A DNA stretch of 12,422 bases from a virus (taxonomy: Duplodnaviria > Heunggongvirae > Uroviricota > Caudoviricetes), in the IMG/VR virus record IMGVR_UViG_2619619131_000008, positions 1-12,422 of that record; one strand, 5' to 3'. A model generated the notes under the pieces. The model was not told the origin of the DNA. It worked only from the letters and a program-made list of their open reading frames with translations, and ran no database searches. Positions 5,341-12,351 of the stretch are shown here, piece after piece; positions within the stretch are counted from its first letter, which is position 1, and each line of letters starts with the position of its first letter. Made by a program: the position numbers and the translations under genes.

Positions 5341-6054
5341 ATGGCTGTTGTCTGTTCAGTTATCATGGTTTGCTCCCCAATTAATATTTTTCTTGAAAAG
5401 GATACGTTGTCACTTAAGCCAGGCTCAGTTGTTCTGGCCACCAAATGCATCAGGGAGCTTTTCCTTATGCATTATGGCAAAGTTAAAATTGTCGATATAA
5501 GCGAATCCGTCGTAAGTCAATATCTGGAAAGTCAGCATAAGCTGACGAGGACTCGTCTGACTGACATTCCGCTTTACCTGTTGCTGGAACCCAACAATCC
5601 TGCGTTGGCTGCGGCTTTAATTACCAGCCAGGGATTTTCCGGAGAGGCCACGGATATGTTTCTTATGATGGCCTGCCTGTCTCTGTTTGAAACAGATGAA
5701 CGGATGTCATTGTTTTTAAGTGGATGTTTATCCAGCATAAGTGCCAAAGTCAGGGCGATAATTCAGACAGATATATCAGCAAGCTGGACGCTTTGTGCGA
5801 TTGCTCTACAGTTGCATATGAGTGAGAGTTTGTTAAAGACAAAACTGAAAAATGAAGGGGGCATGTTCAGTCGCTTGTTGCTGGAAGAGCGGATGCGTGT
5901 TGCTGTAAATATGTTATGTTCCCGGCATGGATATGGACAGGCTATAGCAGAAAAATGCGGTTATTCAAGCAGGTCCTACTTTATTTCTGTATTTCACCGC
6001 TATTATGGCTTCCCGCCAGACAGATATGTATCCAGGCAAGGGCTTGATTATTGA
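5341..6054 (+). CDS. AraC/XylS-family transcriptional regulator (prophage-encoded, AppY/Psr/PatE-like class)
   Basis: 237 aa. C-terminal double-HTH signature of the AraC family (…AIAEKCGYSSRSYFISVFHRYYGFPPDRY…). N-terminus MAVVCSV… resembles prophage AppY-type regulators as recalled. Visibly AT-rich gene and upstream region. Alternative downstream starts are possible. Confidence 0.8.
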   Translation: MAVVCSVIMVCSPINIFLEKDTLSLKPGSVVLATKCIRELFLMHYGKVKIVDISESVVSQYLESQHKLTRTRLTDIPLYLLLEPNNPALAAALITSQGFSGEATDMFLMMACLSLFETDERMSLFLSGCLSSISAKVRAIIQTDISASWTLCAIALQLHMSESLLKTKLKNEGGMFSRLLLEERMRVAVNMLCSRHGYGQAIAEKCGYSSRSYFISVFHRYYGFPPDRYVSRQGLDY

Positions 6055-6082: not shown

Positions 6083-6158
6083 GGCCCTTTAGCTCAGTGG
6101 TGAGAGCGAGCGACTCATAATCGCCAGGTCGCTGGTTCAAATCCAGCAAGGGCCACCA
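6083..6158 (+). tRNA. ileZ: tRNA-Ile2 (anticodon CAU, lysidine-type; ileZ/ileX-like), with encoded CCA
   Basis: Cloverleaf readable by eye: GGCCCTT acceptor, D arm GCTCAGTGGTGAGAGC, anticodon loop CTCATAA, T arm GGTTCAAATCC, 3' CCA. Very similar to recalled E. coli ileX. Anticodon alone would also fit Met. Confidence 0.85.
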
Positions 6159-6165
6159 TCACATA

Positions 6166-6239
6166 CCGCCATTAGCTCATCAGGAAAGAGCGCCAGCCTT
6201 CGAAGCTGGTTGCGCGGAGTTCGGATCCCCGAAGGCGGT
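6166..6239 (+). tRNA. argN: tRNA-Arg-like (anticodon read as UCG; argN-like), with non-canonical stem pairs
   Basis: Acceptor CCGCCAT/AAGGCGG (one A-A mismatch), D arm GCTC…GAGC, anticodon stem-loop CCAGC-CTTCGAA-GCTGG, T arm CGGAG-TTCGGAT-CCCCG (one A-C mismatch). 3' end is TCA rather than CCA. Confidence 0.55.
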
Positions 6240-6255
6240 TCATTATCTGTATCCT

Positions 6256-6332
6256 GCGTTGTTAGCTCAGCCGGACAGAGCAATTGCCTTCTAAGCAATC
6301 GGTCACTGGTTCGAATCCAGTACAACGCGCCA
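6256..6332 (+). tRNA. argO: tRNA-Arg (anticodon UCU; argO/argU-like), with encoded CCA
   Basis: Acceptor GCGTTGT/ACAACGC, D arm GCTCAGCCGGACAGAGC, anticodon loop CTTCTAA, T arm CTGGTTCGAATCCAG, discriminator G + CCA. Confidence 0.85.
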
Positions 6333-6370: not shown

Positions 6371-6502
6371 GTATCCGCGCCACGCCCGGCGCATATCAAC
6401 CACAGAGCCTTTCGGGGGTGAGCTTACGGAGTGGTCAGTGTGACTTTCTCTGTGGGCAGATCGCTCCCGGGCGTTGGCTCACCCACCCAAAGGAACGTCA
6501 CG

Positions 6503-6934
6503 ATGTTTGGTATTTTTGGTAAAAAAGCCCGCCGAGCGGCAGTGGAAATTAAAAAGTTTGAGAAACGTGATCTGGCACAGGCGGTTATTAATGCTGCCTA
6601 TCTGGTGGCCTATGCAGATGGTGAATGTGAGGCTTCAGAGAAAGCGAAGATCGAGCAGGTCTTGCGTAACCAGCCTGCGTTGTCCGCGTTTACGTCAGAA
6701 ATTAATGCGATTAGCGCAACCATTATCGGTCAGCTGGATACGAACTTTAAAATTGGTCGTCGAGCGGCGTTACGTGAGATCGAGGATGTGAAACACGATA
6801 CGCGTGAAGCGGAAGACGTGCTGGATGTGGCGGTGGCCATTGCCGAAGCAGACGGCGAAATAGAGCCGGAAGAGCGCAAGGTGCTGGAAGAGATTGCCGG
6901 TGTTCTGGGCCTTCGTCTGGAGAATCATCTGTGA
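6503..6934 (+). CDS. TerB-like domain protein (tellurite-resistance TerB / DjlA-N-like fold), 143 aa
   Basis: ATG at 6503 with AAGGAA 7 nt upstream. Two TerB-type acidic motifs (AYADGECEASEKAKIEQVL and AEADGEIEPEERKVLEEIAGVLGL). The earlier GTG at 6431 lacks an RBS. Confidence 0.65.
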   Translation: MFGIFGKKARRAAVEIKKFEKRDLAQAVINAAYLVAYADGECEASEKAKIEQVLRNQPALSAFTSEINAISATIIGQLDTNFKIGRRAALREIEDVKHDTREAEDVLDVAVAIAEADGEIEPEERKVLEEIAGVLGLRLENHL

Positions 6935-7104: not shown

Positions 7105-7344
7105 CAGGGTATCAGTTACCCGTTGAAATTTTTAAATACCTCACAATTCAGGCGGTTGACTGTTGTCTGGTTTGCGGGGAGTTTGTTAAAAGAAACTGGC
7201 ATGGTGAATCCCCCTGTGCGGAGGGGCAATCAGCAACTGGTGTTTTGTCACCGACCCTTATCCTTTCTGTGCGGGTTCAGGTGCTGATACTGAACTCACC
7301 GGGAGGCACCCGGCACCATGCAAAATTGTCTACACTACCACTGT

Positions 7345-7373
7345 AAAAAGCCCCTCTCCGGAGGGGCTTTTCT
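7345..7373 (+). terminator. strong intrinsic terminator (AGCCCCTC-TCCG-GAGGGGCT + TTTCT), A-run upstream makes it potentially bidirectional
   Basis: Perfect 8-bp GC-rich stem with tetraloop, flanked by AAAAA and TTTT. Confidence 0.65.
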
Positions 7374-7378
7374 ATGGG

Positions 7379-7407
7379 CAAAAAAAAGCCCGCAGTGAGT
7401 GGCGGGC
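7379..7407 (-). terminator. intrinsic terminator oriented for the minus strand (GCCCGC…GCGGGC preceded on + by A8, i.e. followed by U8 on minus-strand RNA)
   Basis: 6-bp GC stem with 8-nt loop. The poly-A on the + strand corresponds to poly-U on a leftward transcript. Confidence 0.45.
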
Positions 7408-9682: not shown

Positions 9683-9865
9683 ATGACATTTTTACAGCTG
9701 ATTATGTTGTATTTCTGTACAGCAGTTTGTGTGCTGTATCTTCTTTCTGGTGGGTACAGAGTCGTGAGAGATTTCTGGCGCAGGCAGATTGACAAAAGGG
9801 CCGCTGAGAAAATCAGTGCCAGTCAGTCAGCCGGAACAAAACCCGAAGAGCCTCTCATTCCGTAG
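9683..9865 (+). CDS. hypothetical small membrane protein (60 aa)
   Basis: ATG with GGAG upstream. N-terminal hydrophobic helix (LQLIMLYFCTAVCVLYLLSGG). Confidence 0.45.
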   Translation: MTFLQLIMLYFCTAVCVLYLLSGGYRVVRDFWRRQIDKRAAEKISASQSAGTKPEEPLIP

Positions 9866-9902
9866 CAACTTTCTTAACAACACCTTTCAACGAGAAAATA
9901 CC

Positions 9903-10172
9903 ATGTCAGAAATAAAATCGCTGGTCACTGCTGAAGCAGTGAAGGAAGTCCTGCGCTCTGAAGAAGTCAGAAGCGCACTGAAACAGCAACTTCGGCAGAA
10001 CCTTGAGGCGCGTCTTGATGCAGAAGTGGATGCCATTCTGGATGAACTGCTGGGCGCACCGACTGTTCCGGAGCCGGAAGGCATTGCGGATGACAGTGCT
10101 GTTTCAGATGGCGTCGGGTCTCAGCCTGATGGTAGCAGTGAGCCTCAGCCTGACGGCGAAATGATGATGTAA
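9903..10172 (+). CDS. hypothetical acidic protein (89 aa) with C-terminal low-complexity SQPDG/EPQPDG repeat
   Basis: ATG at 9903 chosen over the upstream in-frame ATG (9789), which would overlap the previous gene. Helical N-terminal part and acidic tail. Confidence 0.5.
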   Translation: MSEIKSLVTAEAVKEVLRSEEVRSALKQQLRQNLEARLDAEVDAILDELLGAPTVPEPEGIADDSAVSDGVGSQPDGSSEPQPDGEMMM

Positions 10173-10247: not shown

Positions 10248-10463
10248 ATGTACCAGATGGAAAAAATCACAACAGGTGTGTCATACACCACGTCAGCGGT
10301 GGGGACGGGCTACTGGTTCCTGCAGCTGCTGGACAGGGTTTCCCCGTCTCAGTGGGCGGCAATAGGCGTACTGGGAAGTCTGCTGTTTGGGCTGCTGACA
10401 TATCTGACTAACCTGTATTTCAAAATCAGAGAGGACCGTCGTAAGGCGGCGCGGGGAGAGTAA
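10248..10463 (+). CDS. S: class II holin, phage 21 S-type pinholin (71 aa) with possible dual-start motif (Met1/Met4)
   Basis: [71 protein letters not shown] is near-identical in the C-terminal two thirds to recalled S21. Two TMDs and a charged C-tail. Confidence 0.85.
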
Positions 10464-10467
10464 AGCG

Positions 10468-10812
10468 ATGAAGAAAAAATACGAACTGGTTGTTAAAGGG
10501 ATAAATAATTACCCGAATAAGATTACTGTTACTGTGGCACTGGAAATTGGTGGGTATCCGTCACTGTTGTTGCCAGATGTGGCGATTAGTCTTGACCGTA
10601 CTGAAGATGCCACGCTGGAGTTTTACGAAGCTGAGGCGAAAAAGCAGGCGAAGCAGTTTTTCATGGATGTTGCTGCCGGGTTATGTGAAGGGGATGGTCC
10701 GTTGCCGGAAAAGCGCCCCGTAATTTTAGAGGCGCAGGATGTGTTGATAACCTACAGAGGAAAACTACCGGGAATAATTACTGGTTCTCTGAAGACTCCA
10801 CCGCTGGCCTGA
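10468..10812 (+). CDS. hypothetical 114-aa protein inserted between pinholin and endolysin genes
   Basis: ATG at 10468 with GGAGAG RBS, 4 nt after the holin stop. No TM segment or family recognised. Confidence 0.55.
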   Translation: MKKKYELVVKGINNYPNKITVTVALEIGGYPSLLLPDVAISLDRTEDATLEFYEAEAKKQAKQFFMDVAAGLCEGDGPLPEKRPVILEAQDVLITYRGKLPGIITGSLKTPPLA

Positions 10813-10862
10813 AGACTTAACATATCCAGGGATTTGAAATCGATAAACCCTGATAAATATCC

Positions 10863-11396
10863 ATGAACACCAAAATCAAATACGGCCTGTCGGCTGCCGT
10901 TCTGGCGCTGATTGCCGCAGGTGCGCCTGCGCCTGAAATCCTCGACCAGTTTCTGGATGAAAAGGAAGGTAACCACACCACGGCATACCGTGATGGCGCG
11001 GGTATCTGGACCATCTGCCGCGGTGCCATCCTGGTGGATAGTAAACCTGTCGTCCCGGGCATGAAGTTGTCGAAGGAAAAATGCGACCAGGTCAACGCCA
11101 TTGAGCGTGATAAGGCGCTGGCATGGGTGGAGCGCAATATTAAAGTGCCGCTGACCGAACCCCAGAAAGCGGGTATCGCGTCATTTTGTCCCTATAACAT
11201 TGGCCCCGGTAAGTGTTTCCCGTCGACGTTTTACAGACGGATTAATGCTGGTGACCGCAGGGGAGCATGCGAAGCGATTCGCTGGTGGATTAAGGACGGT
11301 GGCAGAGACTGCCGTATCCGCTCAAATAATTGCTACGGTCAGGTATCCCGGCGAGACCAGGAAAGTGCGCTGGCGTGCTGGGACATCGACAGATAA
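10863..11396 (+). CDS. R: SAR endolysin (T4-lysozyme-like muramidase, R21 type) with N-terminal signal-anchor-release domain
   Basis: 177 aa. N-terminal weakly hydrophobic Gly/Ala-rich segment (GLSAAVLALIAAGAPAP). Catalytic E-x8-D-x5-T pattern (E…NHTTAYRD…GIWT). Expected partner of a pinholin. Confidence 0.8.
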   Translation: MNTKIKYGLSAAVLALIAAGAPAPEILDQFLDEKEGNHTTAYRDGAGIWTICRGAILVDSKPVVPGMKLSKEKCDQVNAIERDKALAWVERNIKVPLTEPQKAGIASFCPYNIGPGKCFPSTFYRRINAGDRRGACEAIRWWIKDGGRDCRIRSNNCYGQVSRRDQESALACWDIDR

Positions 11397-11486: not shown

Positions 11487-11526
11487 AAAACCCCGTTTGT
11501 TGGCACCAAGCGGGGTTTTGTGTTTC
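11487..11526 (+). terminator. intrinsic terminator downstream of the endolysin gene (CCCCGTTTG…CAAGCGGGG + TTTTGTGTTT), A-run upstream
   Basis: 9-bp stem with one G-U pair and 7-nt loop followed by a T-rich run. Confidence 0.5.
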
Positions 11527-11552
11527 TGACCTTGAGTAAGGCAAGGGAGAAC

Positions 11553-11735
11553 ATGGCGAAGTATAAACGAATTCTGTTGAGGTTGACCATGAAAAACGGC
11601 CTTGAACTGAAAGCGCCTGTAACTGATGACATCAGCAGAGCACTGGCTTTTGCCATTAAGTGGGTGGCGGTCGGTGTTGCTGTGTCCCCGATGCTGTATG
11701 GGCTGGCAAAACTGGTCATTGCGTTGAAATCGTGA
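11553..11735 (+). CDS. hypothetical small protein (60 aa) with C-terminal hydrophobic helix
   Basis: ATG at 11553 with AAGGGAGA upstream (short spacing). Hydrophobic segment [22 protein letters not shown]. Function unknown. Confidence 0.35.
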
Positions 11736-11749
11736 AGGGAGGATTAAGC

Positions 11750-11881
11750 ATGTCAGACAAACTCATAACGCTGGCGAAGATCCTCTGTGTAATTGTCGGC
11801 ATTTCATTTTCACTAATGCTGGTTGCTCTTTTTCTTTCCATGGCCTGGATGATGTTGTCTTCGTCGGGGCTGCTGGGGTGA
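11750..11881 (+). CDS. hypothetical small membrane peptide (43 aa)
   Basis: Strong RBS GAAGGGAGG before ATG 11750. One TM helix ([26 protein letters not shown]). Stop overlaps the Rz start. Confidence 0.35.
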
Positions 11882-12351
11882 ACATAAACCGAATGCTTTC
11901 CGCGTTTACCGTTATTCTGCTGGTGGTCTGTGGTGCGCTGTGGCTGGCAACAGACCATTACCGTGATAACGCCATCACCTACAAAGCGCAGCGCGATAAA
12001 AAAGCCAGAGAGCTGGAGCTGGCAAACGCAACCATTACTGACATGCAGCAGCGCCAGCGTGATGTTGCTGCGCTTGATGCCAGATACTCAAGGGAATTAG
12101 CCGATGCGAGAGCTGAAAATGAAACTCTGCGTGCTGATGTTGCCGCTGGTCGTAAGCGCCTGCGGATCAACGCCACCTGCTCCGGTACCGTGCGTGAAGC
12201 CACCGGCACCTCCGGAATGGATAATGCAACCGGCCCCCGACTGGCAGACACCGCTGAACGGGATTATTTCACCCTCAGAGAGCGGTTGATGACAATGCAG
12301 AAGCAACTGGAAGGGGCGCAGGAATATATCCGCACTCAGTGTATTAACTAG
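11878..12351 (+). CDS. Rz: Rz i-spanin (inner-membrane spanin subunit)
   Basis: Strong similarity to recalled lambda Rz (…[15 protein letters not shown]…[17 protein letters not shown]…TMQKQLEG…). N-terminal TM helix. Start may be GTG 11878 or ATG 11893. Confidence 0.85.
12104..12289 (+). CDS. Rz1: Rz1 o-spanin lipoprotein, embedded in the +1 frame inside Rz
   Basis: [61 protein letters not shown]: lipobox VVSAC, Pro-rich, very similar to recalled lambda Rz1. Confidence 0.85.

Follow-up and report, generated by a model that had tools for sequence, protein, structure and literature searches.

A YdfR/DUF1327 family gene in the holin-endolysin gap of a lambdoid late region: distribution, modular structure and possible function

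The 12,422-nt viral contig IMGVR_UViG_2619619131_000008 (Caudoviricetes), analysed over its whole length and referred to below as the window, contains a 114-amino-acid (aa) open reading frame (ORF) between the genes of a P21-type pinholin and a signal-anchor-release (SAR) endolysin. Profile matches identify the product of this ORF as a member of the already catalogued YdfR/DUF1327 family (DUF, domain of unknown function), which overturns the view of the initial annotation that it belongs to no recognisable family. The match to the Pfam family scores 153.1 bits at a cut-off of 25 and covers residues 1–112; the PHROG assignment and the RefSeq name are given in Table 1. With high confidence, the gene can be regarded as an ordinary representative of the family, located in its usual E. 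coli position and truncated to the N-terminal domain (N-domain) plus the middle module.

This ORF is a genuine gene rather than a chance reading frame, as evidenced by the Pfam score, the frame-specific ratio of nonsynonymous to synonymous substitution rates (dN/dS) and the nucleotide-identical copies in RefSeq. Copies of the 345-nt gene with 100% identity are present in many complete E. coli genomes, including those of O104:H4 strains. The N-domain has a pooled dN/dS of 0.44 and the middle module one of 0.59, versus 0.86–0.91 in the other two frames, which indicates real but moderate purifying selection. A 58-aa ORF in an alternative frame (10547–10723, + strand) was rejected as a gene in view of these alternative-frame values; its recurrence at homologous loci only reflects the conservation of the DNA.

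The layout described initially holds in all its coordinates: the gene begins 4 nt past the pinholin stop and ends 50 nt before the start of the SAR endolysin gene. It is indeed well initiated, with a strong GGGGAGAG Shine-Dalgarno sequence, located within the last holin codons, 8–9 nt ahead of its ATG. No promoter-like or terminator-like site was found between holin and ydfR, in agreement with the proposed co-expression with the lysis genes; on the + strand, no sigma-70-like promoter was detected upstream of ydfR and no terminator downstream of it. Since the gene lacks a promoter of its own, its expression in the lysogen is not expected. The window as a whole is organised as a lambdoid late region, in which genes for DUF968, RusA and the Q antiterminator are followed by cargo (an AraC-type regulator, three tRNAs, a TerB-like gene, a NanS-p-type esterase, DUF1378 and DUF826) and then by the lysis cassette; no stx is present in the window. 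Placement in the late region of lambdoid prophages is a feature of the family, and the window shows it with the layout from the Q antiterminator to holin-ydfR-endolysin-Rz.

The holin-endolysin slot and the distribution of the family

The presence or absence of an insert between the pinholin and endolysin genes was surveyed, as the initial annotation had proposed, in 73 loci comprising 71 IMG/VR viral contigs, one E. coli genome and phage H-19B. The holin is at least 97% identical to that of the window in all of these loci except H-19B (92%). A DUF1327 gene lies between holin and endolysin in 50 loci, while in 11 the endolysin gene follows the holin directly, after 1–4 nt; at the other 12 the slot is occupied by an unlike gene coding for about 185–213 aa, which shares only the coiled-coil module with long YdfR forms. 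Holins of 97–100% identity are paired with N-domains 100%, 85% or 55% identical to that of the window, or with no insert at all. The holin-endolysin gap thus constitutes a hypervariable slot that, in E. coli prophages, is most often occupied by YdfR.

Some match to the ydfR ORF was found in 3006 of the 5426 complete E. coli genomes, and a holin-ydfR-endolysin query was covered by at least 80% in 2601 of them; altogether, these genomes contain roughly 12,700 copies of the cassette. P21-type holins are present in 434 phage records, 101 (23%) of which carry YdfR. With types taken from the record names, YdfR is carried by 41 Shiga toxin (Stx) 1a, 15 Stx2c and 2 Stx2a phage records, the holin-carrying records of these types numbering 47, 17 and 124, respectively. 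In one annotated Stx2a phage, with a holin 100% identical to that of the window, the endolysin gene starts 4 nt after the holin. The assumption that pinholin and endolysin genes are normally adjacent is therefore valid for the majority of Stx2a phages, whereas E. coli prophages in general do not follow it, examples being K-12 Qin, H-19B and the 2601 genomes mentioned above. The position of ydfR between these two genes is not unusual, and the gene is optional. Two comparative studies of Stx phages make no mention of the gene in this slot (PMC8136144, PMC10462455).

The DUF1327 family is small: 5.8 billion proteins yielded 274 clusters at 90% identity, and a set of 1.84 billion yielded 93 representatives at 50% identity. 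Its homologues were found only in Enterobacterales, in prophages of Escherichia/Shigella, Citrobacter, Salmonella, Yersinia and Sodalis. The short forms consisting of the N-domain and middle module make up the most populous clusters, several with 450–1100 member sequences, and are present in the inducible phages H-19B and BP-4795; the H-19B copy, 97% identical and in the same place, is unannotated in the phage record. The YdfR/DUF1327 genes thus form a small, Enterobacterales-only family of passengers, optional in the late operons of lambdoid prophages. By the criterion of the initial annotation, its idea would be refuted by a conserved and already characterised component of lysis cassettes; the family is conserved and catalogued but has not been characterised as a lysis component, so that the idea is weakened rather than refuted.

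Another suggestion, that the gene is a moron or other cargo, is borne out in part. Like the morons of lambdoid phages (lambda bor and lom, HK97 morons), ydfR is a discrete optional insertion of deviant base composition between genes that are adjacent in relatives, and its insertion point falls exactly between the stop of the holin and the start of the endolysin. Its GC content at third codon positions (GC3) is 47%, compared to 65% in the holin and 62% in the endolysin gene. Classical morons, which come with a promoter and terminator of their own, are active in the lysogen. Unlike them, ydfR has neither and depends on the late transcript and the holin-coupled Shine-Dalgarno sequence.

The insert also changes the translational layout of the cassette. 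The endolysin ATG of insert-free cassettes follows the holin stop at a distance of 4 nt (GCTG-ATG) and relies on the holin-embedded GGGGAGAG; exactly this position is taken in the window by the ATG of ydfR (AGCG-ATG), and the endolysin begins with MNTKIKYGLS rather than the MSRKLRYGLS of insert-free cassettes. Comparison of the cassettes shows that the insert uncouples endolysin translation from the holin, leaving the endolysin with a leader that lacks a Shine-Dalgarno sequence, and an altered endolysin dosage may result. The 50-nt spacer between ydfR and the endolysin gene contains no notable RNA structure (fold z-score 0.18) and no Rfam match, and a regulatory RNA in this spacer was rejected on these grounds.

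Modular structure and origin by deletion

The fullest forms of the slot gene code for 296 aa (phrog_1085), with others of 268, 287, 305 and 325–333 aa. The full mosaic comprises four modules: the N-domain (residues 1–74), of which at least three sequence types exist, the middle module (75–112), a coiled-coil, and a C-terminal domain of about 125 aa that matches no Pfam family. In the long mosaic forms (176, 183, 268, 287, 296, 305 and 325–333 aa; phrog_2091 and phrog_1085) the N-domain and middle module are identical or nearly identical to those of the window protein and the gene occupies the same slot, but the protein extends into the coiled-coil and often into the C-terminal domain, both of which the window copy lacks. 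The possibility that these extra domains are diverged DUF1327 repeats was rejected (hhalign E = 0.12 and 0.49).

The holin-endolysin interval of the window (399 nt) corresponds, according to BLASTN, to nucleotides 1–340 of the 868-nt interval of locus L006 (99.4% identity) followed by its last ~65 nt (88%). The two ends are joined at a CCACCG microhomology, and the final codons of the window gene (L-A-stop) are supplied by the pre-endolysin leader. Missing are about 460 nt that encode the coiled-coil module of the 176-aa form. Since the window interval equals the two ends of the L006 interval joined at a microhomology, the 114-aa gene is, on this alignment, a derivative of the 176-aa form by deletion of about 460 nt. 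An independent deletion at a CTGAAGACT repeat produced a 110-aa form at loci L058 and L071. At least five different short-form ends are located at or just past KTPP (PPLA, PPESQP, PPKW, PPE and, at L058, LKT); several independent truncations have thus occurred at or after this motif, leaving the N-domain and middle module intact every time.

Long-insert cassettes (e.g., L006, L012, L017 and L023) contain a hairpin, GCCAGTG-CCCAC-CACTGGC, conserved in most of them about 70–90 nt upstream of the endolysin gene; in the window, only the right arm is left, located at the deletion junction. At loci L063 and L019 (185 aa), L004 and L023 (213–214 aa) the post-holin gene carries only the coiled-coil and C-terminal modules of long YdfR; these alternative occupants belong to phrog_36381 or phrog_26186 and have no Pfam match. 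In L004 such a gene is followed by a separate standalone DUF1327 gene of 75 aa (phrog_2735), so that YdfR modules exist both fused and split.

In the AlphaFold2 (AF2) model of the window protein, residues 5–73 form a beta-beta-beta-alpha N-domain with a predicted local distance difference test score (pLDDT) of 71–88, and residues 74–114 are predicted to be disordered, likewise within the 296-aa context. The model of the 296-aa form is poor (mean pLDDT 51.6), only the N-domain and a short beta3-alpha unit at residues 190–228 being moderately confident. Among the 21 diverse members of alignment A2, Y53 and E54, which open the helix, are invariant and Y5 is at least 90% conserved. The N-domain is acidic (isoelectric point 5.1 in the window protein and 4.5–5.1 across the family), and the tails are mildly basic. 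No transmembrane segment was found in the 114-aa protein; its maximal Kyte-Doolittle hydropathy over 19 residues is 1.18, compared to 1.70 for the holin and 1.74 for the SAR segment of the endolysin, and the product is tentatively predicted to be a soluble cytoplasmic protein. Remote homology search and structure prediction, both proposed initially, yielded the family match and the beta-beta-beta-alpha model, but fold searches with YdfR returned no significant match and no relative with a solved structure. Weak matches to beta3-alpha nucleic-acid-binding folds (double-stranded RNA-binding domain, Rad52/Mgm101) and to phiKZ Dip are within noise.

Possible function and alternative explanations

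The closest lead to a function comes from YdfR of the E. coli K-12 Qin prophage (b1555, P76160, 103 aa), which belongs to the same Pfam family and is encoded in the order essQ-ydfR-rrrQ with the same 4-nt gap after the holin. Over residues 1–74 its N-domain is 47% identical to that of the window protein (BLASTP), a region that matches the reported RNase E-binding segment 1–72. The C-terminal parts are unrelated: K-12 YdfR ends in a basic helical tail, whereas the window protein carries the conserved ‘GDGPLPEKRP...KTPP’ module. The K-12 gene also overlaps the start of rrrQ, while the window has the 50-nt leader instead.

In one biochemical study (Gopel et al., RNA Biol 2026; PMC13232886), K-12 YdfR was recovered in a two-hybrid screen; in the bacterial two-hybrid assay the full-length protein gave signals with Rne 1–597, and its fragment 1–72 was sufficient. 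Rne1–598 co-eluted with Strep-YdfR, and DNase-resistant nucleic acid co-purified with YdfR, although the authors were unable to exclude a contaminating protein as its source. Several phage proteins are known to act on RNase E: T4 Srd binds its catalytic half, phiKZ Dip (gp37) binds via acidic patches, and T7 gp0.7 phosphorylates the enzyme (PMC4980113). The YdfR N-domain is acidic like the patches of Dip, and the K-12 homologue binds the N-terminal half of RNase E like Srd; no homology was found between the window YdfR and Dip, Srd or gp0.7.

By analogy with the K-12 protein, YdfR may be an accessory protein of the cytoplasm, expressed late and binding RNA and/or the catalytic half of RNase E with its N-domain, and not an antiholin. 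This is the interpretation that we tentatively prefer, as possible rather than probable. The gene is transcribed on the Q-dependent late transcript and translated from the holin-embedded Shine-Dalgarno sequence that drives endolysin synthesis in insert-free cassettes. The acidic beta3-alpha N-domain would dock on host RNase E at its catalytic N-terminal half, in the manner reported for the K-12 homologue, and/or on RNA, and YdfR, co-produced with the lysis proteins, would influence the processing or decay of RNA in the late lytic cycle; pinholin timing would not be set by it. A point that weighs against this interpretation is that overproduction of K-12 YdfR changed few transcripts, which speaks against a strong global effect (PMC13232886).

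The genomic context of distant homologues bears on the same question. Standalone N-domain proteins of 72–86 aa, 25–36% identical to the window N-domain, are encoded in Sodalis, Yersinia, Citrobacter, Salmonella and metagenomic prophages. In all five independent distant lineages examined, their genes are located in lambda-like tail-tip clusters, oriented as the tail genes of the late operon, at various positions: after the tape-measure gene, between M and L, after L, or before J. The domain is therefore late-operon-borne but not tied to lysis genes, and this context argues for a trans-acting factor on the host or the infection cycle rather than a partner specific to the holin or endolysin.

A convergent gene of about 95 aa without Pfam match comes after the standalone DUF1327 gene in prophages of Citrobacter/Salmonella and Yersinia (L085, 4001–4553; L091, 4001–4525; also L084 and L093). 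Between genera, the ~95-aa products share 38% identity (E = 3e-18) despite the differing places of the pair in the tail cluster, and the two genes look like a conserved mobile module.

A role in lysis itself, with the protein tuning lysis timing or endolysin dosage, or the insert acting in cis by displacing the endolysin from its holin-coupled start, is suggested by the location of the gene in 50 of the 73 cassettes, by its occupation of the coupled start and by the endolysin leader without a Shine-Dalgarno sequence. The Keio delta-ydfR mutant of K-12 was also CPRG (chlorophenol red-beta-D-galactopyranoside)-positive in an envelope-integrity screen (PMC3879167, supplement), but we suspect that the kan cassette could have caused this phenotype through polarity on rrrQ, the endolysin gene downstream. 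YdfR, the product of a gene separate from the holin, is an acidic soluble protein without transmembrane segment or signal peptide, does not co-vary with the holin, since nearly identical holins occur with at least three N-domain types or no insert, and has distant homologues far from lysis genes; the holin, moreover, has its own dual-start antiholin. A lysis modulator thus appears unlikely, and the antiholin-like factor proposed in the initial annotation is disfavoured for the same reasons. Cargo for defence, superinfection exclusion or anti-defence would suit a hypervariable slot that also holds unrelated genes, the low GC3, the two-gene module of the Citrobacter/Salmonella and Yersinia prophages, and the threefold rise in the minimum inhibitory concentration of streptomycin upon ASKA overexpression of K-12 ydfR (PMC12924614). 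It is doubtful in view of the missing promoter and of the near absence of RNA-seq reads for K-12 ydfR in normal growth (PMC13232886). The protein has no enzymatic or membrane domain, and neither its 114-aa nor its 296-aa form matched any defence model of PADLOC (PADLOC-DB 2.0) with E up to 0.1.

It could also be supposed that the gene is a decaying remnant, a functionless piece of the larger mosaic gene that is simply tolerated. This would agree with the origin of the window copy by deletion, with the commonness of independently truncated and of frameshifted variants, with a dN/dS only moderately lower than 1, and with the complete lack of the gene in about 15% of the cassettes with near-identical holins. 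Against this stand the abundance of the short forms, whose clusters are the largest of the family, and their presence in inducible phages; the integrity of the N-domain and middle module in all independent truncations; the clearly stronger constraint on the annotated frame than on the alternative ones; and the retention of the strong Shine-Dalgarno sequence. We consider a functionless remnant improbable.

A bolder extension of the preferred RNase E interpretation, to which we give little credence at present, would make the DUF1327 N-domain an RNase E effector of temperate phages, a lambdoid counterpart of T4 Srd or phiKZ Dip that is delivered from the late operon and, shortly before lysis, protects or reprograms the late transcript of ~25 kb or the decay of host mRNA. 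In that case the holin-endolysin gap would represent a hot spot for the assembly and trimming of modular host-takeover proteins from N-domain, disordered linker motif, coiled coil and C-terminal domain. More than half of the complete E. coli genomes carry the candidate effector domain. If YdfR does act on RNase E, it would be the first RNase E effector of a temperate phage, and late-transcript stability could shift, including that of stx mRNA, which in Stx phages is part of the same transcript. YdfR genes reside in the lysis cassettes of a large share of E. coli prophages, including Stx1a and Stx2c phages, and toxin release by Stx phages depends on late-operon expression and lysis; the loss of translational coupling between holin and endolysin could in itself change endolysin dosage. 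The family is known and its presence here ordinary, and the points of interest are the new RNase E lead and the deletion-prone modular slot.

Features of the lysis cassette and neighbouring genes

The coordinates of the gene, its modules and the lysis cassette are listed in Table 1.

Table 1. Position of ydfR, its parts and the lysis genes in the window.
Feature	Position	Strand	Evidence or remark
ydfR-family gene (DUF1327), 114 aa	10468–10812	+	ATG 10468, TGA 10812; PF07041 E = 2.4e-45; phrog_406 E = 4e-64; RefSeq name ‘YdfR family protein’
P21-type class II holin (pinholin), M1/M4 dual start	10248–10463	+	PF04971 E = 9e-33; phrog_9876/phrog_20 holin
GGGGAGAG Shine-Dalgarno within holin 3' end	10453–10460	+	used by ydfR here, by endolysin in insert-free cassettes
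N-domain, aa 1–74	10468–10689	+	AF2 model; alignments A1, A2; BLASTP versus K-12; PMC13232886
Middle module, aa 75–112, GDGPLPEKRPVILEAQDVLITYRGKLPGIITGSLKTPP	10690–10803	+	highly conserved sequence, predicted disordered; shuffled independently of the N-domain
Deletion junction, CCACCG microhomology at 10798–10803	10798–10812	+	BLASTN of the interval versus L006, L017, L005; long-form ORFs
Endolysin leader, AT-rich, without Shine-Dalgarno	10813–10862	+	kept in nearly all insert-bearing cassettes
SAR endolysin, T4-type lysozyme	10863–11396	+	PF00959; phrog_7; N-terminal G/A-rich SAR segment; E-X8-D-X5-T motif
Rz i-spanin	11878–12351	+	PF03245
Rz1 o-spanin, embedded in Rz	12104–12289	+	PF06085

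Two small overlapping ORFs, of 71 aa (11520–11735, +; phrog_1115) and 73 aa (11660–11881, +; phrog_4906), are located between the endolysin gene and Rz. Both products contain hydrophobic C-terminal or central segments and, as predicted membrane proteins, are better lysis or exclusion candidates than YdfR. They are present in only a subset of related cassettes, and the endolysin-Rz gap is therefore a second variable slot. Just past the endolysin stop, at 11487–11519 (+), a strong hairpin of 13 bp with an A-run and a T-rich tract on its flanks (AAAACCCCG...CGGGGTTTT) abuts the start of the 71-aa ORF; it resembles a bidirectional intrinsic terminator within the late operon.

In the position downstream of Q that stx occupies in Stx phages, the window encodes an AraC-family regulator (5341–6054), three tRNAs (6083–6332) and a TerB-like protein (6431–6934), all on the + strand. 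The tRNAs are Met-CAT according to ARAGORN (likely of the ileZ type, annotated as Ile by RefSeq in locus L001), Arg-TCG and Arg-TCT. Genes for DUF1378 (9683–9865, +) and DUF826 (9789–10172, +) are located between the esterase and holin genes. The DUF826 ORF as delimited mechanically (TTG 9789, 127 aa) overlaps the DUF1378 gene; its true start is probably an internal ATG (MSEIKSL...), because the Pfam match begins at residue 39 and RefSeq annotates a 270-nt version (89 aa) in L001. Rfam searches identified the small RNA STnc100 at 7170–7379 (+; 145.6 bits), just upstream of the NanS-p-type esterase gene, and the sok antitoxin RNA of a hok/sok element at 1762–1937 (+; 117.1 bits).
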